The notes below the pieces were generated by a model. The model was not told where the DNA came from and searched no databases. It saw only the letters and a program-made list of their open reading frames with translations. DNA of 64,000 nucleotides, taken from the NCBI GenBank assembly GCA_021159185.1, contig JAGGSH010000011.1, positions 12,307 through 76,306 of the forward strand. The letters are read 5' to 3'. The stretch comes from a bacterium. Its GTDB lineage: Bacteria; Patescibacteriota; Minisyncoccia; Moranbacterales; UBA9337. Both the position numbers and the translations under genes were made by a program. Of the stretch, positions 119 to 63,498 are shown piece by piece (position 1 is the stretch's first letter; each line of letters starts with the position of its first letter).

Positions 119-260
119 TGTCATTCCCGCGAAGGCGGGAATCTAGGATGAGAAAACGCGAATACAATGAAATAACTAGCTAACTTAGATACGCTTACAA
201 TTCCATCCTAGATTCCGGATATTTTTCTTCGCTACTGCTACAAAAAATTCCGGAATGACA
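119..260. repeat. MITE-like palindromic repeat element, family 1 (gtcattcccgcgaaggcgggaatctagg...ttccggaatgaca)
   Basis: Shares the terminal motifs gtcattcccg / cgggaatgaca and the internal agattccggata...ttccggaatgaca unit with at least 12 other loci in this window. Confidence 0.7.
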
Positions 261-314
261 CAAAGAAAGTAAATGAAAAAATATAAATAGTATTTTAAAT
301 TCAATCCAATATGT

Positions 315-10360: not shown

Positions 10361-11710
10361 GTGCCAATTACTCATCTAAAATGTTTATATAAGCTGATCG
10401 CTATGCTTTATAAAATACTTTTATTTTTTTGCCTGTATCTTCCTTTTCAGCTGGCTCTAAATCCGGCGGAAGGAATTGATTTGGCGTCGGGAAGGGCGGT
10501 AATTTTGTTTTTGTTTTTCTTCTGGATAGTTCGGGGGCTTAAAAATAAAAAAATAATAATTGCTCCAAGAATTCAAACGCTTTTAATTATTTCCTTTTTG
10601 TTTTTAAGCGCTTTTTCTCTGATGGTTTCCCAGAATTTAGAATGGTCGCTTCGTAAATTATTCTTTTTACTTTCCATATTCCCGCTTTATTTTATAATTT
10701 CGGGAATTGAATTTAGCAGTGGGAAAATAAAGAAAATAACTCAATGTTTAGTATGGGGAGCGGGATTAGCCGGGCTTTTGGGAATCTTCCAGTTTTTAAT
10801 CCAGTTCTTTTTTGGAATAAAGAAAACTTTTGAATTCTGGGCGGCGGTTATTACTCCTTTCTTAGGCGATGCTTTCGCGCAAGCGGTTTTAGAAAATCCC
10901 AGTTGGCTGGTTAATATCGGCGGGCAGAATTTTCTTCGCGCTACGGCTTTTTTCCCCGATCCGCATATGTTTTCCTTTTATTTAAATATGGCTTTTTTTC
11001 TAGCTCTAGGATTATGTTTTACAAAATTTAAAAATAAAAAAACTTACTTATTTTTAGCCGGAATTATTTTACTGGCGGACTTGCTCACTTTTTCCCGAGG
11101 CGGCTATATCGGTTTGTTGGCGGGAATAATTTTCAGCATATTGTTATTTTGGAAAAAAGCAGGCGTAAGTTATAAAAAAATATTAGCGGGCGGAATAATT
11201 TTTTTAGGACTAATTATAATTATTCCCAATCCTATCGGGAAAAGGCTGATTTCCAGTTTTGACTTAAATGAAGGATCCAACCAAGGGCGAATAGAAACCT
11301 GGAAAAATTCCATAGAGGTGGTAAAAAATAATCCTGTTCTGGGCGTGGGTTTAGGCGGATATTCTCTGGAAATAAAGCCCAGCGCTGATTATCGGGAGCC
11401 GATTTATTCTCATAATATTTATCTGGACATCGCGGCAGAAACGGGAATTTTAAATAGTTTAATTTGGGCAGGGATAATATTGGCGGCTATTTCTTCTTTT
11501 TTAAAGAAGAGGAAAAACGCGGATGGTTTAAAATATATTTATATCGCCATGGCAGCCGGACTAACCGCTTTTTCCGTTCATTCTTTTTTTGAAACCGCCT
11601 TATTTTCCGCGCGGGTTCTGCCGTTAGTGGTTATTTTAATTGCCTTAAGCGCTTTAAATCGCAAGTTTTTTTTATGCCATTCCCGTCCGTCGCAGCGGAC
11701 GAGGATTTAG
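10361..11710 (+). CDS. O-antigen ligase / Wzy_C-family polytopic membrane protein
   Basis: More than 10 TM. TFSRGGYIGLLAGIIF and YSHNIYLDIAAETGILN (the HN..L....E.G motif) are typical of Wzy_C. The start may be the internal MLYKILLFF at about 10403. The C-terminal codons run into a repeat element. Confidence 0.6.
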   Translation: MPITHLKCLYKLIAMLYKILLFFCLYLPFQLALNPAEGIDLASGRAVILFLFFFWIVRGLKNKKIIIAPRIQTLLIISFLFLSAFSLMVSQNLEWSLRKLFFLLSIFPLYFIISGIEFSSGKIKKITQCLVWGAGLAGLLGIFQFLIQFFFGIKKTFEFWAAVITPFLGDAFAQAVLENPSWLVNIGGQNFLRATAFFPDPHMFSFYLNMAFFLALGLCFTKFKNKKTYLFLAGIILLADLLTFSRGGYIGLLAGIIFSILLFWKKAGVSYKKILAGGIIFLGLIIIIPNPIGKRLISSFDLNEGSNQGRIETWKNSIEVVKNNPVLGVGLGGYSLEIKPSADYREPIYSHNIYLDIAAETGILNSLIWAGIILAAISSFLKKRKNADGLKYIYIAMAAGLTAFSVHSFFETALFSARVLPLVVILIALSALNRKFFLCHSRPSQRTRI

Positions 11711-11714
11711 GAAA

Positions 11715-11912
11715 GTGTCATTCCTATGAAGCTTATCCTCAACTTGATCGGGGAACGGGAATCCAGAATGTCATTCCCGCGAAAGCGGGAATCCAGAACA
11801 TTAATAAAAAAAATTAGTAATTCTATTCTAGATTCCCGCCTACGCGGGAATGACATAAAAAAGTCGGGAATGACATAAAAAAGTCGGGAATGACAGAAAA
11901 AAGTCGGGAATG
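11715..11912. repeat. Cluster of family-1 MITE-like elements with tandem gtcgggaatgacataaaaaa units
   Basis: gtcattcc...gggaatccagaatgtcattcccgcgaaagcgggaatccaga...attcccgcctacgcgggaatgacat, followed by three copies of aaaaagtcgggaatgaca. Confidence 0.7.
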
Positions 11913-11953
11913 GCAAAAAGAAGAGATAAGAATGGCATTAAAGAATATCACAG

Positions 11954-13294
11954 ATGTTTATGAGCATCATTAACGCTAAAAATTTAATCTGGCTTTCAGC
12001 GCTTTCAACCCCATTGTATTTGGTGAAATTTTCTTTTTTTGGACTGCCGTTTAATATCCCGGAAGTTTTAATTATAACCGCTTTTGTATTTTGGCTCGCG
12101 GAAAATAGAAATTTTTCTTGGAAGATTTTTTATCGCCGGCATAAAAAATTTTTAGCGGGAATTTTTCTTATGCTTTTAGGTTTGGTGATTTCCGCTTTAA
12201 TCAATCCGAATCGTCTGGCGGAATGGGGAATTATAAAAAGCTGGCTTATAATTCCTTTAATTTTATCTTTTGTTATCGTGAATGAGATTAAAAATAAAAG
12301 GGATATAGAAAATATTTTTAAAGCCCTTTATTTTTCCGCGGCAGCAGTCAGTTTTATCGGATTGATTTATTTTTTTAAGGGCGATTTAACTTATGATTTC
12401 AGATTAAAAGCTTTTTTTCTGTCTCCTAATTATTTGGCTATGTTTTTGTCTCCTGCGGTTTTTATGGGAAATTATTTTATAGTTTCGCGGATTAAAAACG
12501 GCCTTCGGCATTTAATTGAGAAGCGCGTGGCAATTATTTTATTTATTTTATTTCTTTTAAGCCAAGCGGCTGTGTTAGCAGCGCTTTATCTCACTTATTC
12601 TTACGCCGCCTGGATAGCTGTAATTTTAAGTTTCATTATCGTTAATTTAATAATCAAAAATGGTGAAATATTTAAGAAAATTAAAATCGCTGCCGTTTTG
12701 TTAATTATCTTATCAATTATTTTAATAACTCAAGCGGGCAATTCTAAGTTCAATGAATTGTTTAATTGGCAAGCCGAATCGCGATCTTCTTTAGCTTCGC
12801 GAATTATGATTTGGCAATCGGCGGAAAAAATACTGGAAGATAATTTTTTATGGGGCATCGGGCCGGGAAATTTCCAGTCCGAATATTTGGAATACCAAAA
12901 ATACTTCCCGCCTTATTTGGAATGGGCGGTTCCCCAGCCGCACAATCTGTGTCTGGCTTTTTGGCTGCAGGGCGGGATATTGGGATTAGCCGGCTTTCTC
13001 TATTTGGTTTTTTATTGGATTAGAGAGATAGTAAAAATTGCTAAAAGCAAAATTTCTCCTGAGAATGATTTTAAAAAAACAGCGCCGGTGTTGCTGGGAA
13101 TTATGATTTACATTTTACTCCACGGGATAGCCGACACGCCTTATTGGAAAAACGATCTGGCGATTGTGTTCTGGACTGTTTTTTCTCTGGGAGCGGTAAG
13201 CATAAATTTTAACAAAAAAATTGGGTTTAAAACTCCCCCTTTGGAAAAGAGGGAAAGCGAGCGAAGCGAAGCAGGGGGATTTGAAAAGCGTTAA
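11954..13294 (+). CDS. O-antigen ligase / Wzy_C-family polytopic membrane protein (second paralog)
   Basis: More than 10 TM. WGIGPGNF and PHNLCLAFWLQGGILGLAGFLY are Wzy_C motifs. The last 20 or so codons (PPLEKRESERSEAGGFEKR) are encoded by a family-2 GC-rich repeat. Confidence 0.6.
   Translation: MFMSIINAKNLIWLSALSTPLYLVKFSFFGLPFNIPEVLIITAFVFWLAENRNFSWKIFYRRHKKFLAGIFLMLLGLVISALINPNRLAEWGIIKSWLIIPLILSFVIVNEIKNKRDIENIFKALYFSAAAVSFIGLIYFFKGDLTYDFRLKAFFLSPNYLAMFLSPAVFMGNYFIVSRIKNGLRHLIEKRVAIILFILFLLSQAAVLAALYLTYSYAAWIAVILSFIIVNLIIKNGEIFKKIKIAAVLLIILSIILITQAGNSKFNELFNWQAESRSSLASRIMIWQSAEKILEDNFLWGIGPGNFQSEYLEYQKYFPPYLEWAVPQPHNLCLAFWLQGGILGLAGFLYLVFYWIREIVKIAKSKISPENDFKKTAPVLLGIMIYILLHGIADTPYWKNDLAIVFWTVFSLGAVSINFNKKIGFKTPPLEKRESERSEAGGFEKR
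13232..13287. repeat. Family-2 GC-rich hairpin repeat (actccccctttggaaaagagggaaagcgagcgaagcgaagcagggggatttgaaaa)
   Basis: An identical 56-bp copy lies at 14171-14226 inside ksgA. Related copies are at 22741-22800, 22965-23012, 45241-45290 and 56700-56820. Confidence 0.7.
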
Positions 13295-18971: not shown

Positions 18972-19004
18972 AAAACCGCCTTGATTTGATGGCGGTTTTT
19001 TTAT
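18972..19004 (+). terminator. Rho-independent terminator (aaaaccgcc...ggcggttttttt)
   Basis: Perfect 8-bp stem plus a T-run directly after the 17931-18932 gene. Confidence 0.65.
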
Positions 19005-19009
19005 TTTCT

Positions 19010-19188
19010 ATGTCATTCCGGAATTTTTTCTGAAACGCAGCGGAAGAAAAAATATCCGGAATCTAGAATTAATTTACAAAACTTTCTTTATGTCATTCCC
19101 GACTTGATTGGGAATCTTTCTTTTGTTTTACGCGTAGATTCCGGATAAATTTCTCTGTTGCTACTCCGAAATTTTCCGGAATGACAAC
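19010..19188. repeat. Family-1 MITE-like elements (two adjacent units plus the tacgcgtagattccggata...ttccggaatgaca unit)
   Basis: tgtcattccggaat..., tgtcattcccgacttgattgggaatc, and cgcgtagattccggataaatttctctgttgctactccgaaattttccggaatgaca. Confidence 0.7.
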
Positions 19189-19197
19189 GACATTGTA

Positions 19198-20178
19198 CTA
19201 CGCTTTTTCCATCCCGGGAACTTTTTCTTCAGCAATTTTATTTTCCAATTCACTGCCAACCTCTTCAGATTTAAGAGCGGCGATTTCTTGAAAAAACAAA
19301 AGCCATGCTGTTTGGCGAAAAGCCGTTACGGCTGAGCTTAATAAGAAAGCGATTAAAATAAAAATTAGTATTCCCAAAACCGCCGTAATAAAAATTCCCA
19401 CCTTAGCTAGGATGAAATATAAAACTAATCCTATCAAAATAAACACAAGCGCCAATGGCAGAATTAGCATAATTATGGCAATGCCCGCTATTATTCCGAT
19501 AGCCAATAAAAGCAATGCCATAATCAGGCTGGGTAATGTATTTTTGCGGAAAACTTGATAAGCGTTTTCTATGGATGATTTAATCCCGGATTTAGCCAGC
19601 ACCAGGTAAAAATAAGCGTACTTTTTCAGAAATGAAACTAGGATTATTAAAGGAATGAAAATCAGAATTGCCAGAATTAATAACAGTGAAGCGGCAATGT
19701 AAGACTTTACATGAAATAGAAACACAACCGGAAGGAAAAGAACAATTAATATTCCAAACGTAAAAAATCCTAAAATCAGATCAATCGCCAAAAGTTTCCA
19801 AAAATATTTCCGTCCTTTCTTAAATCCAATGGAAAAATTTGACTTTCCGCCCTTTTTTATACTACTTACCGATTTGATTATAGCCGCCTGGCTGATTATT
19901 CTCAATACCAAAAGAGCGATTGCAATGGCAGTTAAAATAATCAATCCCGCCGCTATCCATTCAAAATGACCGTTTATAAAACTCAAAATCTCTTCTTTGC
20001 CCGCTTTCGTTTTTTCTTCCCATTTCCCATTATTGTTCATTGGCAACTGGAAATTAGAGCTCCCTCCTCCGCCTAAAGCGATAAAAAAACCAAACCACCA
20101 AAGATATTTATTGTTCCAAATAATTTGCCAAGCGTCTTTGATAATTGCCAAATATTTTATTTCTTTTTTCTTATTCAT
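19198..20178 (-). CDS. Hypothetical polytopic membrane protein (~6 TM, Gly-zipper-like segments)
   Basis: Start set to the internal MNKKKEIKYL at 20178, because the longer track ORF extends into the MITE at 20199-20284. No recognised family. Confidence 0.45.
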   Translation of the reverse strand: MNKKKEIKYLAIIKDAWQIIWNNKYLWWFGFFIALGGGGSSNFQLPMNNNGKWEEKTKAGKEEILSFINGHFEWIAAGLIILTAIAIALLVLRIISQAAIIKSVSSIKKGGKSNFSIGFKKGRKYFWKLLAIDLILGFFTFGILIVLFLPVVFLFHVKSYIAASLLLILAILIFIPLIILVSFLKKYAYFYLVLAKSGIKSSIENAYQVFRKNTLPSLIMALLLLAIGIIAGIAIIMLILPLALVFILIGLVLYFILAKVGIFITAVLGILIFILIAFLLSSAVTAFRQTAWLLFFQEIAALKSEEVGSELENKIAEEKVPGMEKA

Positions 20179-20198
20179 TTTTTCGCATTCTTCTAGTT

Positions 20199-20284
20199 TG
20201 TCATTCCCGACTTGATCGGGAATCCAGAATGAAATCACTGACTTCAAAAATTACTCTAGATTCCCGCCTGCGCGGGAATGACAT
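20199..20284. repeat. Family-1 MITE-like element (canonical ~85-bp unit)
   Basis: gtcattcccgacttgatcgggaatccagaatgaaatcactgacttcaaaaattactctagattcccgcctgcgcgggaatgacat. Confidence 0.75.
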
Positions 20285-20321
20285 AAAAGCGTAATTTTCT
20301 TATCAAGTGTGTAATTTCTAA

Positions 20322-22154
20322 TTATGAATTATGGCTTATAGCTTCACCCACCAACTTATCAAACTCTTCTTTTTCAATAGTTTCTTTTTTCAGCAAAGTC
20401 TCGGCGATTTTATTTAAAATCCCCCTTTTTTCATTAATAATTTTTTCCGCAGTTTGCCTGGCCTCTTCAAGAAAGCGGGAAACTTCCATGTCAATTTCCA
20501 AAGCGGTTTGCTCTGAGTAATCTTTTTCTTCGCTAATTTCCTTTCCTAGAAAAACTAACTCTTCTTTCTTGCCGAAAGTTCTGGGACCGAGCCGGCTCAT
20601 TCCATAACGAGTAATAAGATTTCTGGCCATGTGAGTGGCTCTTTCCAGATCGTTAGACGCGCCCGTAGTTATATCACTGAACACGATTTTTTCGCTCACA
20701 TATCCTCCCAGCAAGATAGCCAGCTCATCAATAAAATAAGCTCTGGACTGGAGATACTTGTCTTCAGTGGGAACAGCCATAGTATATCCTCCCGCCTTGC
20801 CGCGGGAAATAATGGAAACTTTTTGAATCGGGTCGGCGTGAGAAAGGCTGGCGGTTACCAAAGCGTGTCCGGCTTCGTGATAAGCCACTATTTTCTTCTC
20901 TTCTTTACTCATTATTTTACTTTTGCGTTCCGGCCCCATAATAACTTTTTCAATAGATTCTTTTAACTCTTTTATTCCTATAGTTTTTTTCTCCCGGCGC
21001 GCGCTAAGTATAGCCGCTTCATTAACAAGATTGGCCAAATCCGCTCCGGAAAAACCGGGAGTGCGTTGAGCAATAACTTTTAGCTCCACTCCTTTTCTTA
21101 AGGGTTTGTTCTTGGCGTGAATTCTAAGAATGGCTTCTCTCTCCTTAATATCGGGAAGATCTATAACCACTCTTCTGTCAAACCTTCCCGGACGCAAAAG
21201 CGCTGGATCTAAAACATCGGGGCGGTTAGTGGCTGCCATTACAATTACATTAGTGTCAGTTTCAAATCCATCCATTTCCACCAAAATTTGATTTAAGGTT
21301 TGTTCTCGTTCGTCATGTCCGCCGCCCAGACCGGCTCCGCGATGCCGCCCCACCGCGTCAATTTCATCAATAAATACGATAGACGGAGCGTTTTTTTTGG
21401 CCTTCTTGAAAAGATCGCGCACGCGGGAAGCTCCCACGCCCACAAACATTTCCACAAACTCGGATCCGCTGATATTAAAGAATGGAACTTCAGCCTCTCC
21501 CGCTACTGCTTTCGCCATTAAAGTTTTTCCCGTTCCCGGCGGTCCCAATAAAAGCACGCCCTTGGGAATTTTAGCGCCGACAGCCAGAAATTTTTTGGGA
21601 TGTTTTAAAAATTCAACGACTTCCAATAATTCTTCCTTAGCTTCTTTAGCTCCAGCAACATCTTTAAAGGTAGTTTTCTTCTTTTTGTCTTTGGGGTCGG
21701 TCATTCTAGCGCGGCTCATCCCGAAAGAGAGCGCTTGAGTATTCCCTCTTTGAGCTTGGCGCATCATAAACCAGATAAATCCGGCAATTAAAATGAATGG
21801 CAGTAAAAATGGCAAAATAAGCCCCGCCCAAACGGCGGCGGAAGATTCTTTCTTTACCTCAACTTTTACGCCTTTGAGTTTTTCTTTATCCACGCCGTAA
21901 TTATCCAACGATTCGCCTAGAGAACTTTCCATTTCTTTGCTTGTTTTTTCTTTTTCTCCATTATTAAGTTCAATTTTCAGCTCATTTCCCTCAATAATAA
22001 TTTCTTTTACTGCTCCCTCATTTATCTGGCTAACCAACTGGCTTAATGAGGTATCTTCATATTTCTGGGCGGGCGCGTTATAAAGCACCAGTATTCCCGA
22101 AACAAACAAAAAAAACAAAATAATTAATCCTATATTTTTTAATAATTTATCCAT
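20322..22154 (-). CDS. ftsH: ATP-dependent zinc metalloprotease FtsH
   Basis: Two N-terminal TM, Walker [19 protein letters not shown], a second region of homology, and the HEAGHALV zinc motif. Confidence 0.95.
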
Positions 22155-22244
22155 TATATTATCTTAATTTTCTCTATATCCTCTCCTCCTTTACTAAGGG
22201 GGAGATGTCCGTAGGACAGAGGGGGTTTCTTAAATTTAAAAAAT

Positions 22245-23306
22245 CTACATTTTCACTACGCTCACTTTATCACCTTTCTTTTCTATTTTCAACCCTTTGA
22301 ATTCTATTCTTTGAATTTTACTTTTTTTACTTTCAATTATTTTAATAATTTCTTCAATGTGGCAGGTCTCAATGTCGGTTAAATCTGCTCTGATCTGAAA
22401 AATCATCTGGCGCAAAACTTGCCTTTGCATTGCCGGATGTAATTTTTGAAATTTTCCCGCGCTAAAAATAATTTTATCCGTCTTAGTCGCATTTATTTGT
22501 TTAATCATTCGCTTCCCATTCGCGGACAAGCAATCATAATCGTCAGCGACAATCAGCGACATATTAGCTAAAGTTTTTTTAATATTAGGATTGTAATTTT
22601 TTTCCAGATAAGGAATTAACCGATGGCGGATTTTATTGCGGGAGATCTTAATATCTTTATTGGTAATGTCAGTTTGATATTTTAATTTATTTTCTTTAAG
22701 ATATTCTAAAATTTCTTTTCGGCTTGTATTTAACAACGGACGAATAATAATATTCTCCCCCTCCCCTTTGGGGAGAGGGCTGGGGTGAGGGGTTTTCGGT
22801 CTCATAACTGCCAACCCTTGCAATCCTGCTCCTCGCAAAACCCGCATCAAAACCGTTTCGGCTTGGTCGTCCCGATTATGCGCCACCGCGATTAAATTAT
22901 ATTTTTTTCTTTTCCTAATTTTCTCAAAAAAATCATACCGAATCTCCCGCAACCAATTCTCCAAATTCTCCCCCTTTGGAAAAGGGGGGTTAGGGGGGAT
23001 TTGAAAAACCTTCGCATTCTCGTAAATTTTATTTTTCGCAATACTTAAAACGCTAACCCCCAACTCGTACTTTCCTGCCAACTCTCTCACAAACTCCTCA
23101 TCCCTATCCGAATCCTTTCCCCGCAAACCGTAATTCACATGGGCAATGTATAATTTAAAATTATATTTAGGCGCCAGCTTTACCAAAATATCCAAAAGAC
23201 AGGCGCTGTCCGGCCCGCCCGAAACACCGACAATAATCCTTGAGCCTTCCTCCCAAAGCCCATACCGCCCGGAAAAACTTTGAATTTTTTTAACCAAACT
23301 TTTCAT
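22245..23306 (-). CDS. tilS: tRNA(Ile)-lysidine synthetase TilS with two in-frame repeat-derived insertions
   Basis: PP-loop IIVGVSGGPDSACLLDIL and HNRDDQAETVLMRVLRGAGLQGLAVMRP. The inserted segments IPPNPPFPKGENLENW and KTPHPSPLPKGEGENII are encoded by family-2 repeats at 22965-23012 and 22741-22800. Confidence 0.85.
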   Translation of the reverse strand: MKSLVKKIQSFSGRYGLWEEGSRIIVGVSGGPDSACLLDILVKLAPKYNFKLYIAHVNYGLRGKDSDRDEEFVRELAGKYELGVSVLSIAKNKIYENAKVFQIPPNPPFPKGENLENWLREIRYDFFEKIRKRKKYNLIAVAHNRDDQAETVLMRVLRGAGLQGLAVMRPKTPHPSPLPKGEGENIIIRPLLNTSRKEILEYLKENKLKYQTDITNKDIKISRNKIRHRLIPYLEKNYNPNIKKTLANMSLIVADDYDCLSANGKRMIKQINATKTDKIIFSAGKFQKLHPAMQRQVLRQMIFQIRADLTDIETCHIEEIIKIIESKKSKIQRIEFKGLKIEKKGDKVSVVKM

Positions 23307-23430
23307 TTTGTGTTTTTTCTATCTACCGCTACTGCGCGATCGCGCAGTAGCGGTAGATAGAATTAAGCCGGATAAGTTAATTTTAGAGGCATCTATAGAT
23401 GCCTCTATTCTCTATTTTAAATCTCTGATT

Positions 23431-23991
23431 TTATTTCAGATCGTTTTTGATAATCTTTGCCACTTTTAAAACTGTTTCATCTAACTTTCCCTCTTCATTC
23501 TCCACGCTATAATCAAAAGCGTTTTTGTTTTTCGTCCAGCCTTGGGCGTACTTTATTCTTTTTTGTATAAATTTTTCCGAAACTCTGCCTCTGTTTCTGA
23601 TCCTTTTTTCAATAATATCCAAAGGAGCGTTAATCAATATGGCTGGTATTTCCGGCATCATTTTTTTCAGGTTCAGCACTCCCTTATAATCAACTTTCCA
23701 GATGACAATCTTTTCACTATTTCTGGCGCGCTTAATTTCTTTATGAGTCACGCCGTAAAAATTATTATTGTCTTCTTCCGCCCATTCAAAAAAATCCCCG
23801 TTCTTTACGCCTTTTTTAAATTCTTCTTTGGGAATGAAATAATAAGGCCGGCCTTGGGATTCTCCCGGGCGCATTTCCCGCGTGGTAGTGGTGATAACCC
23901 TTTCAATGTCAAGATATTTTTTCAATCCTTTAATGACGGAATCTTCCCCCGCGCCGGACGGACCGGAAATGATAAAAACGTTGGATTTCAT
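23431..23991 (-). CDS. gmk: Guanylate kinase homolog with a degenerate P-loop (GPSGAGEDS instead of GxSGxGKxT)
   Basis: ITTTTREMRPGESQGRPYYFI and FFEWAEEDNNNFYGVT align with the GMK GMP-binding region, but the Walker-A Lys and Ser/Thr are replaced by Glu and Asp. Confidence 0.7.
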   Translation of the reverse strand: MKSNVFIISGPSGAGEDSVIKGLKKYLDIERVITTTTREMRPGESQGRPYYFIPKEEFKKGVKNGDFFEWAEEDNNNFYGVTHKEIKRARNSEKIVIWKVDYKGVLNLKKMMPEIPAILINAPLDIIEKRIRNRGRVSEKFIQKRIKYAQGWTKNKNAFDYSVENEEGKLDETVLKVAKIIKNDLK

Positions 23992-24075
23992 ATTTTTTAT
24001 TTGCTTTAATTTTAAATTATTTCTATAATCTGATTATAGCCATAATTTTCTAAAAAAGGCAAAAGCTATAGTTTT

Positions 24076-24618
24076 TTGTATATGTATAACCTTGAAAAAA
24101 ATACTTTTAAACAAAATTACAATGCGTATGATAACGCATATGTAAAAAATAGCAGTGAGAAAATCTGGGAAAAATTTAAAAAAGGACTAAATAATGAAAA
24201 AGAGAAGAAGTTAACGGAATTTGAAAAAGAAATAAAAAAGGGGGTGCCGTTTGAAGATGCTGACGATGTAGTGGAAGAAGTAAGAAGAATTGTTCCCCCT
24301 ATATTGTCCGTTCCCAAGAAATACTTTAATAAGATAAAAAGCAAAGGTTTTATAGAGCCGAAGCCGGACTGGACTGGATATAGATCAGTAGCGGCTGTAT
24401 TGGGAAGATCCCCCTATACTCCAAAAAATGAAGAAAGGATTTATTTTAAATTAAGCCCTCAAGTTAAGGTTGAACCTAGGTTTATGCCTAAAAATAAAAT
24501 AAGGAAAACAACAAGCGAACTAAATAAAGATGACGCGATGTTTTACGGAGTAGTTCTTGTTTCAGACGATCAAAAACGGCTTCGTTTAGGACATGACTTA
24601 AAACAAATCAGCAATTAA
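24076..24618 (+). CDS. Hypothetical protein (180 aa)
   Basis: ORF in AT-rich host-like codon usage with no recognised motif. Confidence 0.4.
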   Translation: MYMYNLEKNTFKQNYNAYDNAYVKNSSEKIWEKFKKGLNNEKEKKLTEFEKEIKKGVPFEDADDVVEEVRRIVPPILSVPKKYFNKIKSKGFIEPKPDWTGYRSVAAVLGRSPYTPKNEERIYFKLSPQVKVEPRFMPKNKIRKTTSELNKDDAMFYGVVLVSDDQKRLRLGHDLKQISN

Positions 24619-24640
24619 AAGCGCGATATTTCATATAAAT

Positions 24641-26158
24641 TTACTTAGCGCTTTTTTTATTTTTTTCTGGCTTTGCTAGATCTGGCGTAGCCAGACTTTT
24701 CTTTTCTCCTGCCTTTTTCTCTATGACTTTCTTTACTTTTTTCTTTTCCTCTTTCTTTCTTGCTTTCTTACTTACTGCCTGTTGCTTATCGCTTACTTCT
24801 TTATGCTTACTTTCTGCTTCTTTCTTCTTACTGCTCTTATCTTTAACCAGCGCCAATCCCATCCTATGATTTTTCGGCTCTATAGAAAGAATTTTCCATT
24901 GGTAGGATTCGCCTTCTTTTATCACATCGTCCATTCTTTTGCCGGGATACATTTCCTGAAACTCGCTCACATGCGCCAGTCCGTGTATGTTTTTGTCCAG
25001 ATATACAAAAACTCCGAAGCGGTTAATTTTATCCACTTTGCCTTTCACAACATTGCCTGTCTCATATTTCTTTTCAATATTTTCCCATGGGTCTTTTTCC
25101 AGCGCTTTTAAAGAAAGAGAAACGCGCATGTTATTAATTCCAATAATCTGGGCCTTAACTATGTCTCCTTTTTTTATAACCTCTCTTGGGTCATTAATTA
25201 ATTGCCATGCTAATTCTGAAATATGCACCAGCCCCTCCAGTTTATCATCTTCTTTGCCTGAATCTTTTTTGGATGGAGGAAAAAATTTCACAAAAGCTCC
25301 GAAGTCTACTACTCCGCTCACTTCGCCCTCAACGATATCCCCCGCTTTCATTTTGGCGACAGTTTCTTTCTCTTCACTGCTCATAACCGCTTTCTCGCTA
25401 ACAATCAGTTTTTCCTCATCCCTGTCAGCGCTGATGATTTTTACTTTGAGCTCGCGGCCGATTAAATTTTTAAGCATTTCCAAAATTCTGCTCTTGCTCC
25501 CGTCTTCCACGCGGGGATAATTTTTGCTGGATAACTGGGACACGGGCAAAAAGCTTGATATTCCGTTAATTTCAACTATTAATCCTCCTCTGTTAGCGTC
25601 AAGCACTTTCGTAATAATTGTTTTTTGGGCGTCTCTTTTGTATTCTATGTCTTCCCAAGCTTTTTCATAAGAAGCTTCTCTAACGGAAAGTTCCATATAA
25701 CCGCTTTCATCTCCTAAACTAGTTAAAGTCGCGCTGACCGTATCGCCTTCTTTTATTTTCCCGTCAATATTCAATCCGTCTTTCATTTCTTTTCCTAAAA
25801 CTATTCCTGTTCCCAATGGGCCTAAATCAAGCAAGATATAGCTAGAGGAAATTTCAATCACCTTTCCTTCCAAAACATCTCCCACTTCCGGAATTTCTAT
25901 AGGATTCTCTTTCAGTAATTCTTCCATAGAAAGTTCATTTTTCCCTTTCTTGCCTGCCTGCCGGCGAGGCAGGCTTTTTTCAGACGAGCTTTTTTTTACT
26001 TTTACTTTTACTTTTACTTTCTTTTTCTTTATGCTTGTTTCTTGCTTCTTTTTCCTTCCCAGTTCTCGCTTCTCGCTTACTTCTTTTTTCTTCCCGCTTA
26101 TTTCTATTTTATCCACCTCTTCCGCCAGTTTGTCTAAAATGTTTTTTTTGCCAGCCAT
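24641..26158 (-). CDS. rpsA: 30S ribosomal protein S1-like, multiple S1 domains with Lys-rich terminal extensions
   Basis: Four or more S1 repeats (GDVLEGKVIEIS..., GDIVEGEVSGVVDFGAFV, GDIVKAQIIGIN..., GNVVKGKVDKINRFGVFV). The N-terminal region contains an in-frame 27-bp GC hairpin repeat. Confidence 0.8.
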   Translation of the reverse strand: MAGKKNILDKLAEEVDKIEISGKKKEVSEKRELGRKKKQETSIKKKKVKVKVKVKKSSSEKSLPRRQAGKKGKNELSMEELLKENPIEIPEVGDVLEGKVIEISSSYILLDLGPLGTGIVLGKEMKDGLNIDGKIKEGDTVSATLTSLGDESGYMELSVREASYEKAWEDIEYKRDAQKTIITKVLDANRGGLIVEINGISSFLPVSQLSSKNYPRVEDGSKSRILEMLKNLIGRELKVKIISADRDEEKLIVSEKAVMSSEEKETVAKMKAGDIVEGEVSGVVDFGAFVKFFPPSKKDSGKEDDKLEGLVHISELAWQLINDPREVIKKGDIVKAQIIGINNMRVSLSLKALEKDPWENIEKKYETGNVVKGKVDKINRFGVFVYLDKNIHGLAHVSEFQEMYPGKRMDDVIKEGESYQWKILSIEPKNHRMGLALVKDKSSKKKEAESKHKEVSDKQQAVSKKARKKEEKKKVKKVIEKKAGEKKSLATPDLAKPEKNKKSAK

Positions 26159-26554
26159 TTTATTGATTTTAATGCTTAAGCGGAAACGCTGACCGCTTTC
26201 TTAAATAATTAACAGCGTTTTTTCTTTTTAGCCCCCTTTCCCTTCGGGAGAGGATTAAAGTGAAAGTTCTTTTAATCAGCCTTTCCTTTTGCGAAAGGGT
26301 TGCAGGGCTTTATTAAAACAAAAAATTCCCTACCAAATAGGAAACTATCAAGAAAACTGAAAAGATTAATTCCATTTCTCATATTCCCTTTTCTTTTTAT
26401 TAAAGGAGGGATTAAGAGAAGGTTCATCTTTGCTTATTCAATTTTCTTAATAATTACGCTATTTAAGAGTGTATCTTATAAATTTATTTTTGGCAAGAGC
26501 TGTTTAAAATGATAGAATATCAACAGAGATTAATAAATTAATTTTTTAAAATTT

Positions 26555-27304
26555 ATGTTAGAAAAAGAACTTCAAGAAATCGGGCTTAATGAAAAAGAAG
26601 CCAAAGTTTATTTAGCTTCTTTGGAATTAGGGCAGTCCACTGTCCAAAAAATCTCCCAAAAAGCGGGAGTTAACCGGGCCACCGCCTATTTTATAATTGA
26701 AAGCCTGGCGAGAAAAGGACTCGTAAGCAGTTTTCATCAGAACAAAAAACAATTTTTCATCGCTGCCGATCCAAACAGGTTAAGCGAGCTTTTAGAACAA
26801 CAAAAAGAAAATATCAAGAAGAATGAAAAAAAGCTAAAAGAACTTCTTCCTCAGCTGCAATCAATGGATGCTAAGCAAAAAAATCGTCCGGTGGTTAAAT
26901 ATTATGAAGGGAAAGAAGGCCTTATTTCAATACAAGAGGAATTTCTTAAGTCAAGAAAGGGCATTGCGAGCATGGCTTATTCTGTTGACGCTGTAAATAG
27001 AGTATTTACAAACAATGAAATGTCTAGATTTAGAAGAAAAAGATTAAATAAGGATATTAAAAATAAAGTTATTTATACTTACAAAAAAGGTATTTTAGAA
27101 AGCGACAAAACTAGTAAAAGAAAAAAGGTGCCTTTTAGTAAATTTCCCATAACTTGTGATATAGCGATTTACGATAACAAGATAAGGCTTGCGTCGCTGG
27201 GAAAAAGATTGACAGGTATTATTATAGAAGATAAGGAATTGGCAGATTCAATGAAAGCAATTTTTAATTTAGCCTGGGAAGCTGCGGAAAAATACCAAAA
27301 ATAA
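26555..27304 (+). CDS. TrmB-family (winged-HTH) transcriptional regulator
   Basis: The N-terminus LQEIGLNEKEAKVYLASLELGQSTVQKISQKAGVNRATAYFIIESLARKGLVS matches the TrmB HTH domain. Confidence 0.6.
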   Translation: MLEKELQEIGLNEKEAKVYLASLELGQSTVQKISQKAGVNRATAYFIIESLARKGLVSSFHQNKKQFFIAADPNRLSELLEQQKENIKKNEKKLKELLPQLQSMDAKQKNRPVVKYYEGKEGLISIQEEFLKSRKGIASMAYSVDAVNRVFTNNEMSRFRRKRLNKDIKNKVIYTYKKGILESDKTSKRKKVPFSKFPITCDIAIYDNKIRLASLGKRLTGIIIEDKELADSMKAIFNLAWEAAEKYQK

Positions 27305-27578
27305 AAGGGCATCTGAATCTATATCTATTGATCCTGATGCCCATTTTTCCTTTGTCGCCGGCTATTTATTACCGGCAACACTAACAAGATAACCTCCTAG
27401 TCGCACACTTCTTTGTTCCTCCTTTTTTTAGATTTTTCGGGAGCATTCACAAGAGAATGTTTCAAGTTTTTCCTCCTACTAAGCGACGGCTTTAAAAGTC
27501 CGCCGCTTTTCGGCCGGCCAAACTCTCTACAAGTCTCCCATGGTTGACCCCTCCCCCGTAAAAGAACTGCTTTGGATG
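27300..27578 (-). ncRNA. Candidate ~280-nt structured non-coding RNA of unknown class, on the minus strand
   Basis: Flanked by a consensus-like promoter (TTGACA, 17 bp, TAGTAT at 27613-27585 on the minus strand) and the terminator at 27307-27348. It is GC-rich and hairpin-rich, for example ccggtaataaatagccgg and ggccggccgaaaagcggcgg. No ORF over 60 aa. Checked by eye against RNase P, tmRNA, SRP and 6S signatures without a match. Confidence 0.25.
27307..27348. terminator. Bidirectional rho-independent terminator (gggcatc...gatgccc with T-runs on both strands)
   Basis: Hairpin directly after the stop at 27304. The reverse complement is also followed by TTTTATTTTT. Confidence 0.5.
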
Positions 27579-27584
27579 TTTATG

Positions 27585-27613
27585 ATACTAGCAGATTAAA
27601 CAACTTTTGTCAA
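27585..27613 (-). promoter_or_regulatory. Sigma-70-like promoter (TTGACA, 17 bp, TAGTAT) on the minus strand
   Basis: The reverse complement reads ttgacaaaagttgtttaatctgctagtat. Confidence 0.45.
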
Positions 27614-27891
27614 CAGCCGTAAACATTTTTTTAGAATTTCTCAATTTATTCTTAAAATAAAGGAAAAGAGCTAAAAATTTATTTTTGAATAAGATTAACA
27701 AATAAATTATCCATACTAATATACTTTTTTTTATTTTTAGCATTTATATGCTATCGCTTATAAGTGCTAACTAGATAGTTTCCATTTAGCATCTTAAAAT
27801 AAAGTCTGCCTATTTAAACAAGATTTATTTTTGTTCTTTTCTTTATATAAAGCAAGAATTAGGAATTATCAAAATTAAGTGTTAAAAGGGC

Positions 27892-27919
27892 TTGACAAAT
27901 TTTGCCAGTCTGCTATACT
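27892..27919 (+). promoter_or_regulatory. Sigma-70-like promoter TTGACAAATTTT...TATACT, near-identical to the one at 56940-56967
   Basis: cttgacaaattttgccagtctgctatactgg. It drives a leader of about 790 nt upstream of the small-ORF operon. Confidence 0.5.
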
Positions 27920-28716
27920 GGCCTAACGCTGAAAAAGAGAGAAGTTCCTCAAGTTAAAAAGATAGTAATATTTTTCCAACACTGAATAACGCGCTGCTGA
28001 TCTGAAAACGGAAACAGCAAAAAACAGTCAGCCAAGCCGGTTATTTGGTTGAACGCGATCCTTAAAGAATTTGTCAGGCTTTAAATAAATTTATAATTGG
28101 CCTTAACAGAGCGAAAAAGGATTTAGCTCAAAAGGACGAAGTATTATTTTTTAATCCGGTAACATCGTGAAATTCCAGAACATTAACAATTTAACCCTCG
28201 CTTTTTTCCGTTAATTCCTAGCGGGAAGAAGCGAGGGATCCCTCTAAAACTTTGTAAGTAGAGCGTCTCAAGAAATTTGGATAAGGCGTATTTTCCAGCG
28301 AAGTTTTTACGCCCAATTGGCTCAAATTATTATTTGCGAAGTTTTAGAGGGAGGATAAGAAACGACGCAATTATCCTACCTGCAACTACCTCTGTATTGT
28401 TTGGAAAGTTAACAAACAATATAAGTAGAAATGGCAATGTGCCATGGCAAACAATGGGGCGATAGTCTGTTGTTTGTCTCAGTTTTCTGGATAGAAAAAA
28501 CTATCGGCCAGAAAACTGAATTGCGTTGTGGCTTACGAGCGGCGCCGTTGCCAAGTTCGCTCATTGCTTTTTTTAAAAACGCTGCCATGGGAACACAGCG
28601 TAAAGAAGCCGCTTTGAATTAAAAAGGTTTCATGTTCCCCTTTTTAAAAATTCCATAATTTTTTTGTGGAATTTTAGAGGGAAGTAAAAAATTCAAAAAA
28701 AGGAGAAGCAAAAAAA

Positions 28717-28944
28717 ATGAAAAACAAAAGCGCAAGCATTATTATGAGGAAAAGCTTTATTGGGATCATAATCTCATTATTAAGAGAGGACGATCTCGAA
28801 GCAGCCCAACTCATGGGCTACTGGGGTGCAGAGGGCAATGAGGAGGAGTACGATAAGTGCTTCGAGCGCTCTGAAAAACTTGAAACGGTCATCAGGCTCC
28901 TCGGTGAGTTATACCTCGAGGAGAAAAAGGAGGAGATGTCATGA
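28717..28944 (+). CDS. Small acidic hypothetical protein (75 aa), first gene of a foreign-like small-ORF operon
   Basis: Strong SD (aaaaaggagaagc). Codon usage is GAG/CTC/TAC/GGC-rich, unlike host genes. Its stop overlaps the next gene's start (ATGA). Confidence 0.5.
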   Translation: MKNKSASIIMRKSFIGIIISLLREDDLEAAQLMGYWGAEGNEEEYDKCFERSEKLETVIRLLGELYLEEKKEEMS

Positions 28945-29303
28945 AAATGATATACAGAAAAGAAATGAGTTTTGATGTTGATTCAGACTCAGGAGACAGG
29001 GTTGAATTGACATCAGACCGAGGTGAATTATTCGGTGTAAATGTTGATGAAATCAATGATCACACCCGCACGAATGCACGTTGTAGTAAGTGCGGAAAGA
29101 TAAAAGATGGATATGGTAAAGGCGATTTTATTGTGTCAAGTATCATCAATGTTAACACAATGATTCCCGTTAACTTTAGTAAAAAGGTTAGCGAGGTAAT
29201 TGCAAAAACCATACAAGATAGCAGAGATCGCAATTTTATTTGTGACGATTGCATAAATCTTTTGAGTAAACTTTCAGAGGAGGATGTTGCACATGAGAGA
29301 TAA
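28941..29303 (+). CDS. Hypothetical 120-aa protein with a CxxC...CxxC zinc-ribbon-like motif
   Basis: CSKCGK...CDDCINLL, translationally coupled to the upstream ORF. Confidence 0.5.
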   Translation: MKMIYRKEMSFDVDSDSGDRVELTSDRGELFGVNVDEINDHTRTNARCSKCGKIKDGYGKGDFIVSSIINVNTMIPVNFSKKVSEVIAKTIQDSRDRNFICDDCINLLSKLSEEDVAHER

Positions 29304-29484
29304 AAAAACCGAGGCGAAAATCCGGCGGGAGAGGAAGAGACTCGCCCGCCAAAAAATAAAAGCTTCCCCAGAATATTTTCTGGGGATTGAGGACAGTATT
29401 ATTCCCGAAATGTGCGACTGTGGAAGAGTCGCCATGGAGGGAGTCGGCCAGTGCTTAGGATGCTTTAGGCGCTTGTCGTCATAG
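29293..29484 (+). CDS. Small basic protein (63 aa) with a CxC...CxxC motif
   Basis: Start MRDKKTEAK is chosen because GAGGAGG sits 9 nt upstream. It has an Arg/Lys-rich N-terminus and CDCGRVAMEGVGQCLGC. Confidence 0.45.
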   Translation: MRDKKTEAKIRRERKRLARQKIKASPEYFLGIEDSIIPEMCDCGRVAMEGVGQCLGCFRRLSS

Positions 29485-29687
29485 AATTCAGCCCAATCCC
29501 ATGGCTTAAAACCGGGACTGTAATATTTCGGGGAAGCACCGAAGTGCTGGTTTTTCAAAATTTCCGGCGGTCATTAAAAAATCTCGGACAAGAAAATTAA
29601 CATATTTCCTTGTCCTTCCAATCAAGATCGTAAAATGGTTTGCGGTTTTGACGGGAAGAAAAATAGACAACCAAAGGGAGGTGTAAT

Positions 29688-29909
29688 ATGGAAAGCATAT
29701 TTGGTTTGATTGAGATGATGGCAAAATGGGTATGGTCATTTTCTGTAGGAAAGTACATTGTTACCTTTACATTAACCTCGATGATAATCTGGCTGACCGT
29801 GATTCTTTTTGAGTCTCCCAAGATGACAGTGGAGAGAAAGGAAAGAGAATTAAGGGATGCAGAAAGAATAGCAGAAAGATATAAGGCATTGAGAAAGGAG
29901 GTAAAATGA
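29688..29909 (+). CDS. Small single-TM protein (73 aa) with a charged coiled-coil tail (holin-like or membrane anchor)
   Basis: SD gggagg. One hydrophobic helix, IVTFTLTSMIIWLTVILF, then ERKERELRDAERIAERYKALRKEVK. ATGA overlap with the next ORF. Confidence 0.45.
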   Translation: MESIFGLIEMMAKWVWSFSVGKYIVTFTLTSMIIWLTVILFESPKMTVERKERELRDAERIAERYKALRKEVK

Positions 29910-30175
29910 AAATGAAAAAGAAAAAAAATTGGAAGCCTCGTCTCCCGCGGGAGACGATTGAAACTCTCCGCCATCGCGGCGGAGCGCACGGAAGCCCCAA
30001 AGGAAAAAAGGGCTATAGCCGCCAGCGGGAAAAATCCGCTTGGCGCAAACAGATGGATAACAACTCCGTCTGTTTTTTTATTTCCCAAATCTCGACAAAC
30101 CGCTTCTGGTGTGATAAGCTGGGGATATTGAAAAATTATTTGGTTGCAAGAAGACTATTTGCCAATAAAACATAA
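29906..30175 (+). CDS. Small highly basic protein (89 aa)
   Basis: SD aaggagg. KKKKNWKPRLPRETIETLRHRGGAHGSPKGKKGYSRQREKSAWRK. Translationally coupled to the previous ORF. Confidence 0.45.
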   Translation: MKMKKKKNWKPRLPRETIETLRHRGGAHGSPKGKKGYSRQREKSAWRKQMDNNSVCFFISQISTNRFWCDKLGILKNYLVARRLFANKT

Positions 30176-30274: not shown

Positions 30275-30337
30275 TTACGCGTAGATTCCGGATATTTTTT
30301 CTTTCGCTGTCACTTTAGAAAAAATTCCGGAATGACA
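30275..30337. repeat. Family-1-related element (tacgcgtagattccggatat...aaaattccggaatgaca)
   Basis: Third copy of the unit also seen at 200-260 and 19125-19188. Confidence 0.65.
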
Positions 30338-30437
30338 TGGGGAAAGTAAGCGAAAAACTGTAAACAACGCCGTGAAATATAACACAAAAATCTATTCGTA
30401 TATTCGTATTTTAATTAGTAATCAGTAAAGAGTTACT

Positions 30438-63367: not shown

Positions 63368-63453
63368 TGTCATTCCCGGCTTGATCGGGAATCTAGGATG
63401 GAATTGCTGGCTTTAGAAATTACTCTAGATTCCCGCTTTCGCGGGAATGACAT
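63368..63453. repeat. Family-1 MITE-like element between two VirB4-like ORFs
   Basis: gtcattcccggcttgatcgggaatctaggatggaattgctggctttagaaattactctagattcccgctttcgcgggaatgacat. Confidence 0.75.
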
Positions 63454-63498
63454 AAAAAAGGGAAGGAAATGACATAGAAAAAATGAAGATGATAAAAT

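Follow-up and report, generated by a model that had tools for sequence, protein, structure and literature searches.

Two divergent, conserved RNA elements in a candidate control locus beside a TrmB-family gene of Moranbacteria

Does a stretch of DNA without ordinary genes, set between a regulator gene and a run of tiny open reading frames (ORFs), hold functional RNA, and what might that RNA do? The question is raised by a gene-free interval of 1.4 kb (27300-28716) in a 64,000-nucleotide window of contig JAGGSH010000011.1, from an uncultured genome of Moranbacteria (Patescibacteria, or CPR, the candidate phyla radiation). An earlier note on this DNA had seen in it candidate novel non-coding RNA(s) and a long leader behind divergent promoters. 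Comparison with related genomes supports that view, since both units and their promoters are kept in 16-17 lineages. The interval appears, on the evidence of its sequence, to be a conserved control locus beside a TrmB-family gene, with two divergently transcribed non-coding units. We put the probability that these are two new conserved RNA elements, with the structures described here, at about 0.9. The proposed mechanism, in which the rightward RNA would be a cis-acting sensing leader and the leftward RNA a translation-sensing small RNA (sRNA) with twin mini-ORFs, both tied to the TrmB-like regulator, is given about 0.5. The locus is composed as follows, with positions counted along the window.

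26555..27304, + strand: gene of a TrmB-family winged helix-turn-helix regulator, 249 aa (Pfam TrmB, E = 4e-16)
27307..27348, both strands: bidirectional intrinsic terminator GGGCAUC(A)GGAUC...GAUUC(A)GAUGCCC, ending trmB (+) and the leftward RNA (-)
27307..27579, - strand: leftward sRNA (twin mini-ORF RNA), about 270 nt (fold, conservation, and promoter with mini-ORFs in 16 loci)
27585..27613, - strand: leftward promoter TTGACA-17-(TGC)TAGTAT (promoter scan; same place in 16 loci)
27614..27891, no strand: AT-rich control region, 22% GC, between the divergent promoters
27892..27919, + strand: rightward promoter CTTGACA-16/17-(TGC)TATACT (promoter scan; aligned relatives)
27926..28237, + strand: conserved core of the rightward RNA, about 310 nt (nhmmer, 17 distinct loci)

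Homologues were sought with nhmmer searches iterated over 80 genome loci reached via the TrmB protein, together with loci reached via a downstream protein; individual loci are named L003 and so on. The searches recovered the rightward core from 17 distinct Moranbacteria loci. It shares the strand of trmB throughout and, where the fetched DNA includes this gene, lies 0.5-0.8 kb downstream. TrmB orthologues with 56-78% identity sit 0.5-0.8 kb upstream of the plus-strand promoter in 16 loci, and the TrmB-like gene is a conserved neighbour of both RNAs. Loci L003-L007, whose TrmB orthologues are 77-78% identical, share a gene-free stretch of about 1.2 kb. Their identity to window positions 27561-28350 is 87-89%, against 89% for gyrA and 77-82% for trmB, so that this part of the interval matches gyrA in conservation and exceeds trmB.

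Both promoters proposed in the earlier note were recovered by a promoter scan and proved to be TG-extended, the minus-strand TTGACA-17-TAGTAT (27613-27585) with 10/12 matches and the plus-strand TTGACA-16-TATACT (27892-27919) with 11/12. Across 13 aligned loci the -35 element of the rightward promoter is invariant and the -10 element nearly so, the form in relatives being an essentially invariant CTTGACA-17-TATACT. All minimum free energy (MFE) folds of the core share one architecture, made up of these elements.

First element of the rightward RNA, + strand: small 5' hairpin (MFE folds)
27944-27950, + strand: conserved GUUCCUC before P2
27953-27960 / 28148-28155, + strand: outer helix P2, its 5' strand with conserved (G)UUCCUC or CACCUC
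27956-27965, + strand: junction AAAAAGAUAG
27965-27977 / 28134-28147, + strand: long-range helix P3
27981-27990 / 28040-28049, + strand: helix P4 (CUG.../...UGG), with an inner hairpin at 27996-28032 and conserved GCGC and AAGYCGG
28057-28123, + strand: helix P5, long, with a conserved AU-rich loop
28178-28190, + strand: conserved single-stranded tail GAACAUUAACAAU
28195-28213 / 28219-28237, + strand: hairpin P7 (CCCUC...GAGGG)

About 40 nucleotides of the core are invariant in the aligned loci; among the loci the junction reads AAAAGAUAG without exception and the tail is conserved as GAACUUUGACAAU. The plus strand of 27926-28716 folds with an MFE of -252.4 kcal/mol (z = -10.4 against shuffles), whereas its reverse complement, at -201.2 kcal/mol (z = -4.0), is 51 kcal/mol weaker, which indicates that the pairing is strand-specific and depends on G-U pairs. 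The 19-bp hairpin at 28195-28237, noticed earlier as ccctcgc/gcgaggg, contains three U-G pairs that become A-C on the opposite strand, and pairs of this kind, existing only on the plus strand, argue for RNA structure rather than a DNA palindrome. The other hairpins picked out by eye, the ttgtttg/caaacaa pairs and the ccagaaaactga hairpin, are likewise present.

The core is also supported by covariation. In an 11-sequence MAFFT alignment, 91.8% of the cells of P4 and P7 are paired, against 75.7 +/- 1.5% in column shuffles, none of 500 reaching the observed value; 17 pairs have changed on both sides in a compensatory manner, and pairing falls to 40-50% when the partner strand is slid. Because MAFFT cannot align the long-range helices, alignment-free duplex tests were used, in which each lineage's own strands were compared with partners permuted among 13 lineage representatives. 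Cognate duplexes of P3 reach -175.9 kcal/mol against -89.7 +/- 11.9 kcal/mol for permuted ones (0/20000 permutations), those of P5 -277.3 against -161.0 +/- 16.1 kcal/mol (0/20000), those of the variable part of P4 -60.8 against -36.9 +/- 5.5 kcal/mol (0/20000), and those of the inner part of P7 -102.3 against -57.1 +/- 8.9 kcal/mol (1/20000). The strands of P3 have wholly different sequences among lineages and are always complementary. Conserved structure with covarying helices, the hallmark sought in a sensor domain, is thus found in P3, P4, P5 and P7, and the structural conservation in relatives on which the earlier proposal depended is present in four helices. The rightward core is a genuine structured RNA. 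A pseudoknot between UUUGA of the tail and UCAAA of the P5 loop was considered and discarded, as it shows no covariation and the window and L003 have the same loop with different tails.

The leftward RNA would be transcribed from the minus-strand promoter towards trmB, and three features stand out within it.

27527..27541, - strand: mini-ORF 1, AUG GGA GAC UUG UAG (M-G-D-L-stop), with a Shine-Dalgarno sequence (SD) GGGGGAGGGG at 27548-27557
27397..27408, - strand: mini-ORF 2, GUG UGC GAC UAG (M-C-D-stop), with SD AGGAGG at 27418-27423
27483..27506, - strand: GC-rich apical hairpin GCGGCGGAC-UUUUAAA-GCCGUCGC between the mini-ORFs, flanked by conserved GAAAAG and UAGUAGGAGG

The minus strand of 27300-27580 folds with z = -5.1, the RNA is 79-82% conserved against the closest relatives, and a hairpin at 27354-27379 is perfect on the minus strand only, by virtue of a G-U pair. 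The apical hairpin has undergone compensatory changes relative to L003 (GCGGUGAUC/GAUCACCGC) and L006 (GCGGCAGGC/GCUGCCGC), and other lineages carry a similar GAAA-hairpin-AGUAGG/AGUAAG. Mini-ORF 1 pairs with UCUCUUGUG at 27448-27456, and the frame and this downstream arm covary among lineages (-131.4 against -106.4 +/- 7.0 kcal/mol permuted; 4/20000). Mini-ORF 2 was aligned with the second mini-ORF of 15 other loci, the ATG/GTG column being invariant. The bidirectional terminator read by eye at 27307-27348 is real, a GGGCAUC...GAUGCCC hairpin between an A-run and a T-run, followed by UUUUAUUUUU on the minus strand and by AUUUUU on the plus strand; the scanner missed it because its loop exceeds 8 nt. 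An equivalent strong terminator adjoins the trmB stop in every relative.

The same layout recurs widely. All 16 loci examined have the leftward promoter, TTGACA-17-(TGC)TAnnnT, 140-310 nt from the plus-strand promoter, and a promoter of this type is seen in more distant Moranbacteria too. In all 16, two strong and often extended SDs (AAAGGAGG, AAAGGGGGUGA) are each followed at canonical spacing by a frame of 3-4 codons, the twin frames lying 98-140 nt apart; the peptides in other loci are MGD, MDD, MND, MED, MGN, MNN, MGDW, MGDC, MGDF and MGDY. Codons were tallied over about 35 frames, for one of which (L030) the sequence was entered from the peptide alone. Every frame begins with AUG (about 27) or GUG (8), and Asp (GAC or GAU) stands at codon 3 with two exceptions. 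Codon 2 makes use of all four Gly codons, and codon 4 is UAA, UAG or UGA in about 28 frames, the stop otherwise coming one codon later (six) or two later (one). This pattern, free at wobble positions and in the choice of stop yet fixed in start, Asp codon and the presence of a stop, is the mark of selection for translation, not for an RNA motif. The earlier note held that a short conserved protein gene would tell against its proposal; what the interval contains is these two conserved frames, too short for an ordinary gene, and they make the leftward RNA more unusual, not less.

The chance rate of such frames was estimated from 240 unrelated loci (1.78 Mb) that had been reached as chance matches of the loose pattern GTTCCTC-N0-12-AAAAGATRG, none of them confirmed by nhmmer. 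SD-M-X-D-stop frames occur there at 4.5 per Mb, against 24 within 1.3 kb of trmB in 53 loci where about 0.6 would be expected, an enrichment of about 40-fold. Relative to trmB the leftward unit is convergent, or tandem in other lineages: L042, L038 and L039 (a Falkowbacteria record) have the twin frames MGD/MSD, MCD/MFD and MGD/MED upstream of trmB on the same strand; the unit shows a promoter of its own in L042 and L039, and a terminator of its own in L042 and L038. The link to trmB thus does not depend on orientation. In the distant Moranbacteria L022, L026 and L050 the promoter and a layout of SD, anti-SD, AUG, SD and mini-ORF are kept beside trmB, and the place of the rightward RNA is taken by a Mur ligase gene. 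Since these lineages keep the leftward layout and lack the rightward RNA, the leftward RNA appears to be the older partner of trmB; the rightward RNA and its small-protein island would be a clade-specific addition.

Two side observations concern the leftward unit. The distant loci (L022 5760-5800, L050 6880-6905, L026 6850-6880, minus strand) place an anti-SD (CUCC or UCCUUCC) between two SDs, in the order AAGGAG..CUCC..AUGAAGGAGA..AUG, and this anti-SD could pair with either SD, a compact, switch-like layout before the mini-ORF. On the minus strand of L008 (3211-3500), an SD-bearing frame with start AAGGAGGTGAGAAAAAGTG, roughly 90 codons by eye, precedes both mini-ORFs on the same transcript, and the element may sit there in a 3' untranslated region.

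What follows the rightward core differs among lineages, and in the window comprises the following.

28239..28352, + strand: hairpin 2, arms UCCCUCUAAAACUUUGUAAGUA and UAUUUGCGAAGUUUUAGAGGGA, 22 nt each and 86% complementary
28353..28518, + strand: window-specific structured insert of 166 nt, with no homologue in any fetched locus
28519..28716, + strand: module A, a paralogous leader with two more copies in L003
29906..30175, + strand: gene of a small basic protein, RHKGGAH..KGKKGY.R, linked to the rightward RNA and outside the interval

The leader of about 790 nt that had been proposed for this strand is composite: 27926-28352 is common to relatives and the remainder is not shared. Hairpin 2 is kept in L003, L006 and L010, and an analogous covarying hairpin, CAAC(A/G)CGAC...GUCG(U/C)GUUG, is found in L015 and L012. 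A ribosome-binding site and an ORF come directly after hairpin 2 in L003 and L006, and in the closest relatives the leader stops just past the first GTTTTAGAGGGA, to be followed by a ribosome-binding site and an ORF. The insert holds a terminator-like hairpin (28446-28478) and then a U-run. Module A ends in a hairpin with the third motif copy (28672-28682) on its 3' arm, an A-rich spacer, the SD AAGGAG (28700-28705) and the ATG at 28717; its copies in L003, at 10761-10962 and 12902-13141, each precede a small ORF. A direct repeat of 32 nt joins 28330-28361 and 28660-28691.

These arrangements explain the three motif copies reported by eye. The sequence TTTTAGAGGGA occurs in perfect form exactly three times in 64 kb, all inside the interval, at 28239-28249 (-), 28342-28352 (+) and 28672-28682 (+); with at most one mismatch there are 8 matches in the window against 3.0 expected, a number that 0/100 shuffles reach. 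Two of the three copies are the arms of hairpin 2 and the third is an arm of the paralogous hairpin. The suggestion that the gttttagaggga triplet is a conserved binding site was accordingly abandoned, the GTTTTAGAGGGA triplet being the two arms of one hairpin plus a duplicated hairpin before a ribosome-binding site, and not three binding sites. The earlier statement that no ORF exceeds 60 aa is not literally correct, as mechanical ORFs of 62 aa (28277-28465) and 63 aa (28431-28622) exist, beside one of 59 aa on the minus strand, but neither of the longer two is conserved; they lie in a segment that relatives lack and are therefore not conserved genes. A 22-aa minus-strand frame, also considered as a hidden gene, is broken by an indel in L003 (by-eye reading).

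To the right of the interval lie tiny ORFs of 75, 120, 66, 73 and 89 aa without a Pfam family, then an MBL-fold gene and gyrA. This tiny-gene island (28717-30175 in the window, 9950-14500 in L003), whose 120-aa product has a zinc ribbon and whose 73-aa product is a membrane protein, varies in content among close relatives, and its intergenic leaders are repeated modules, such as module B (29485-29687), which has 4-5 copies in L003. The island looks like the result of cassette shuffling via recombination between leaders.

One gene linked to the rightward RNA is that of the RHKGGAH protein, which begins about 30-100 nt past the core in L020, L011, L328, L013 and L009. The protein is about 55 aa long and very basic (consensus ..PRLP.EVVE.LRHKGGAHS..KGKKGYDRK..). 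Its family comprises 114 clusters from Moranbacteria and Parcubacteria, all labelled 'hypothetical', it has no match in Pfam, NCBIfam or PDB, and it is also found without the rightward RNA in Parcubacteria. An ArfA-like identity, suggested by a KGKGSY motif, was dropped as unsupported when a profile search of all PDB chains came back empty at E <= 10, as did Pfam and NCBIfam. Elsewhere the gene that comes next specifies a small membrane protein in L019, L016 and L008, a Cys-rich peptide of 20 aa in L331 and a protein of 115 aa in L003. Cys-rich mini-proteins directly behind the rightward RNA were also observed as MKCLNCPRSGKGCQYGCPKY, ..CCTCPRGGKGCQYGCPKR and a 33-aa ORF (L331 about 464-526; L008 about 4970-5033; L015 7013-7114). 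A family of about 105 aa (..CNILPGCKG..PLKRDK..W..PVCSGCRKSLEREARAQGKT..F..LE.SKREAE.RNAE..), absent from the window and without a Pfam or NCBIfam match, recurs in the small-protein islands (L010 5293-5604, L008 6127-6441, L015 7605-7931, L017 8259-8651, L016 8000-8317, L012 7940-8413). Downstream of the RHKGGAH gene, an intergenic element of about 85 nt (30281-30365) has two further copies in the window, at 18988-19067 (-) and 207-287 (+) (nhmmer E = 7e-8 and 2e-5).

In most of the 17 loci an SD-bearing ORF starts within about 100 nt of the tail, P7 or hairpin 2. In L015 and L012 the next ORF is immediately preceded by an intrinsic terminator, located about 410-430 nt downstream of the -10 element. 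A constant core with variable platforms, heading small-protein operons, fits a cis-acting leader best, and a cis-acting 5' leader of the tiny-protein operon is the most likely reading of the comparative data. A strong, probably regulated promoter would yield an RNA whose first 310 nt or so form the three-way junction P3/P4/P5 closed by P2, then the conserved unpaired tail, then a stable hairpin or two (P7, hairpin 2). The leader would bind a ligand or a protein, candidates being the RHKGGAH protein and the TrmB-like protein, and the hairpins or terminators behind the core would determine the amount of transcript and the number of ribosomes that arrive at the small-protein genes. On the leftward side, mini-ORF 1 is the 5' arm of a long hairpin and covaries with the opposite arm, which means that a ribosome occupying the frame has to unfold the hairpin. 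As the frame is buried in the base of that hairpin, initiating ribosomes would open it, and on the resulting fold the stability or activity of the RNA would depend; in this way the RNA would signal translation status, in terms of free ribosomes, Asp-tRNA or release factors.

Several observations weigh against this mechanism. For the rightward RNA no mutually exclusive 'switch' helices were found, and sequestration of the next gene's SD by an anti-SD (CCUC), considered as a mode of action, is not general, since CCUC cannot pair in L013 (by-eye reading). The genes downstream encode a mixed set of small proteins, whereas known riboswitches govern coherent regulons. In the window, L010 and L018 the core and the next credible ORF are separated by another 0.5-0.7 kb of non-coding RNA, a gap that suits a free-standing RNA better than a leader. 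The leftward RNA ends at the terminator beside the trmB stop and so has no downstream gene to control in cis, and the frames of L022, L026 and L050 encode MGAS, MIT and MVT rather than M-X-D, so that the peptide is unlikely to be the important product. The duplex covariation tests, moreover, were designed by the authors and rest on helix boundaries of their own choosing. A serious rival for the rightward unit is an abundant, free-standing structured RNA, a ribonucleoprotein scaffold or a trans regulator, that is merely co-transcribed with the small-protein mRNAs or processed from them; 6S RNA, co-transcribed with ygfA in Escherichia coli, provides a precedent. The near-consensus, invariant promoter and the large, ornate core with its many invariant nucleotides would suit such an RNA, as would the terminators of L015 and L012, the terminator-like hairpin at 28446-28478, the long gap before the next ORF in three loci and the varying gene content. 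Set against these are the SD-bearing ORFs that most lineages have close behind the RNA with no terminator between; we regard this alternative as possible but somewhat improbable.

For the leftward RNA, the mini-ORFs might instead be untranslated, GGAGG...AUGGnnGAYU serving as a recognition motif for RNA or protein, whether as a sponge for 30S subunits or a CsrA-like protein or as a STAB-SD-like stabiliser. The window's leftward RNA has four AGGAGG-type sites, the complementarity of the extended SDs (AAAGGGGGUGA) to the 16S 3' tail goes beyond the requirement of ordinary genes, mini-ORF 1 belongs to a covarying stem, and the peptide differs in distant lineages. A motif would hardly explain, however, why any of the three stops may serve and a new one appears one or two codons on where the stop has been lost, why wobble positions vary freely beside a kept start, Asp codon and stop, or why the SD-start spacing is canonical, at roughly 4-10 nt past the motif core. 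Compared with sponges of the CsrB/RsmZ type, each leftward RNA has 2-4 SD-like sites, and several copies (for example AUGAAUGAC) have no GGA in the start region where CsrA binding needs it. We consider this explanation distinctly unlikely. Far less credible still, and already disfavoured, is the view that the region is debris of a mobile element, prophage or decayed gene, or a DNA-level element such as a replication origin, with functionless hairpins. Repeated leader modules with variable small-ORF content do point to recombination, and the cumulative GC skew has its minimum near 26.3-26.4 kb, where gene orientation flips (genes at 19198-26158 on the minus strand, those from 26555 on the plus strand), so that 26200-26600 may lie near a replication origin or terminus. 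Yet compensatory changes keep the helices across 13 lineages, pairing is strand-asymmetric and G-U-dependent, and no phage or plasmid similarity was found. DnaA-box-like 9-mers number 28 against 13.8 expected over the window without clustering in 26200-26600, and the spacer has a single one-mismatch DnaA box (27707-27715) and no cluster, for which reason an origin in the interval was rejected. Alternative genetic codes open no frame either, TGA read as sense giving at most 73 codons.

Known RNA classes were excluded as well. Rfam 15 (4227 models), whose families cover 6S, tmRNA, RNase P, SRP, raiA, OLE, GOLLD, ROOL, HEARO, riboswitches and ribozymes, returns at gathering and permissive thresholds only tRNAs from the window, and only tRNAs from 14 homologous loci, in line with the earlier failure to match RNase P, tmRNA, SRP or 6S by eye; the best sub-threshold match within 27000-29000 is a microRNA model with 24 bits against a threshold of 86. 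ARAGORN finds 5 tRNAs and no tmRNA in the window. A 6S identity was set aside, since the rightward RNA is a three-way junction without an Rfam 6S match; the leftward RNA does have the shape of a rod, yet what is conserved in it is SD, AUG and stop. A CRISPR or tracrRNA origin of GTTTTAGAG was also dismissed: this sequence occurs only twice, as the arms of hairpin 2, there is no array among the tandem repeats of the window and there are no cas genes, the sole 'Cas12f TNB' match being a sub-threshold zinc ribbon (17 bits against a cut-off of 26). Among the tandem repeats, a 20-nt unit, CGGGAATGACATAAAAAAGT, has 4 copies with 93% matches at 11845-11923, and a related AATGACATAAAAAAAGGAAGGA repeat lies at 63446-63488.

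The region between the two promoters contains two palindromes in the window.

27737-27770, no strand: palindrome of 34 bp
27841-27852, no strand: palindrome CTTTATATAAAG

The part of the intergenic region between trmB and the plus-strand promoter that is nearest this promoter is 81-85% identical to the closest relatives. Recurring in all 17 lineages are a palindrome, GCTTTAnnTAAAGC, about 45 nt upstream of the -35 element (27841-27852 in the window), a TGTT..AACA element further upstream and a TGTT abutting the -35 element. Conserved synteny leads us to infer that the TrmB-like protein binds the control-region palindromes and may thereby regulate both units. This protein has identical copies on metagenome contigs, and its close homologues are labelled Candidatus Moranbacteria. 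Along its whole length (residues 8-246) the TrmB-like protein aligns to the TrmBL2 model NF041141, a weak match (E = 2e-4) far below the cut-off. TrmBL2 of Thermococcales is a chromatin-type protein and not a sugar sensor, and the likeness may bear on the role of the TrmB-like protein beside the two RNAs.

Patescibacteria make up a large share of bacterial diversity, have tiny genomes, are almost uncultured, and little is known of their gene regulation; no lineage-specific structured RNA has been described for them in the literature searched. Neither of the two RNAs was found described there, although coverage was incomplete and this is no proof of novelty. The locus offers two concrete, covariation-supported RNA elements, and for each of them a promoter, a structure and a partner gene are defined. 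The rightward one is ornate and orphan, and its association with the RHKGGAH family, Cys-rich peptides and zinc-ribbon proteins directs attention to uncharacterised tiny proteins. More striking is the twin Met-X-Asp mini-ORF RNA, as conserved three-codon frames in a dedicated sRNA would make a minimal translation-coupled sensor, an idea that can be tested without culturing the organism. A bolder and quite tentative proposal is that the leftward unit is the founding member of an unrecognised class of Patescibacteria sRNAs that would work via two Met-X-Asp-stop frames and be coupled to TrmB-like regulators, with the rightward RNA as a sensing leader (riboswitch-like or protein-binding) for tiny proteins, the whole forming a control locus for translation status. 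If this were true, the leftward class would act as a sensor of ribosomes, Asp-tRNA or release factors, the tiny proteins under the rightward leader would include a possible ribosome-associated basic protein, and such a locus would be specific to bacteria with reduced genomes.

Known systems resemble each of the two RNAs in part. Leader-peptide attenuators such as trpL and pheL, or those of erm and cat, share with the leftward RNA a short frame with a good SD inside a structure that the ribosome must remodel, and the last sense codon of the leftward frame is conserved (Asp). They differ in that the leftward frames have 3-4 codons with a single Asp codon (occasionally two, in MDD) in place of a run of regulatory codons, and that the RNA has two frames, its own terminator and no structural gene downstream. 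The bar minigenes of phage lambda are very short frames behind an SD, and the leftward frames, like minigenes and start-stop sites, have two to four codons behind strong SDs and would yield no useful protein; by analogy, they might capture ribosomes in the same way. Start-stop sites are a subject of bioRxiv 10.1101/520783. Unlike minigenes, they are conserved as a pair in a dedicated sRNA in several Patescibacteria lineages, with Asp as the third codon and trmB as neighbour, and nothing comparable to such a twin-frame sRNA was found in the literature searched. The dual-function sRNAs SgrS/SgrT, RNAIII/delta-hemolysin and SR1/SR1P encode peptides of about 26-43 aa. The leftward RNA resembles them in its own promoter, terminator and internal (predicted) translated frame, and differs in encoding tripeptides, which moreover change in sequence in distant relatives.

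A close parallel to the rightward RNA is the raiA motif, an ornate orphan RNA upstream of the ribosome-hibernation gene raiA, with a family in Rfam. Both are multi-helix junctions of a few hundred nucleotides, with conserved junction or loop nucleotides and covarying helices; both lie upstream of genes that are, for the rightward RNA, small and possibly ribosome-related; and in both, action in cis or in trans is ambiguous. The rightward RNA, in contrast to the raiA type, has no Rfam match and is built of a three-way junction closed by P2, a tail and a CCCUC/GAGGG hairpin; it is confined to one Moranbacteria clade, with uncharacterised tiny proteins downstream. From riboswitches it departs in showing no alternative-pairing switch, in its heterogeneous regulon and in lying sometimes far from the next ORF. 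With riboswitches and ribosomal-protein leaders alike it nevertheless shares a constant 5' domain behind a promoter, followed, according to lineage, by a ribosome-binding site or an intrinsic terminator, and as in protein-binding leaders it stands, in 5 lineages, directly upstream of the gene of a small, very basic protein that could bind RNA.

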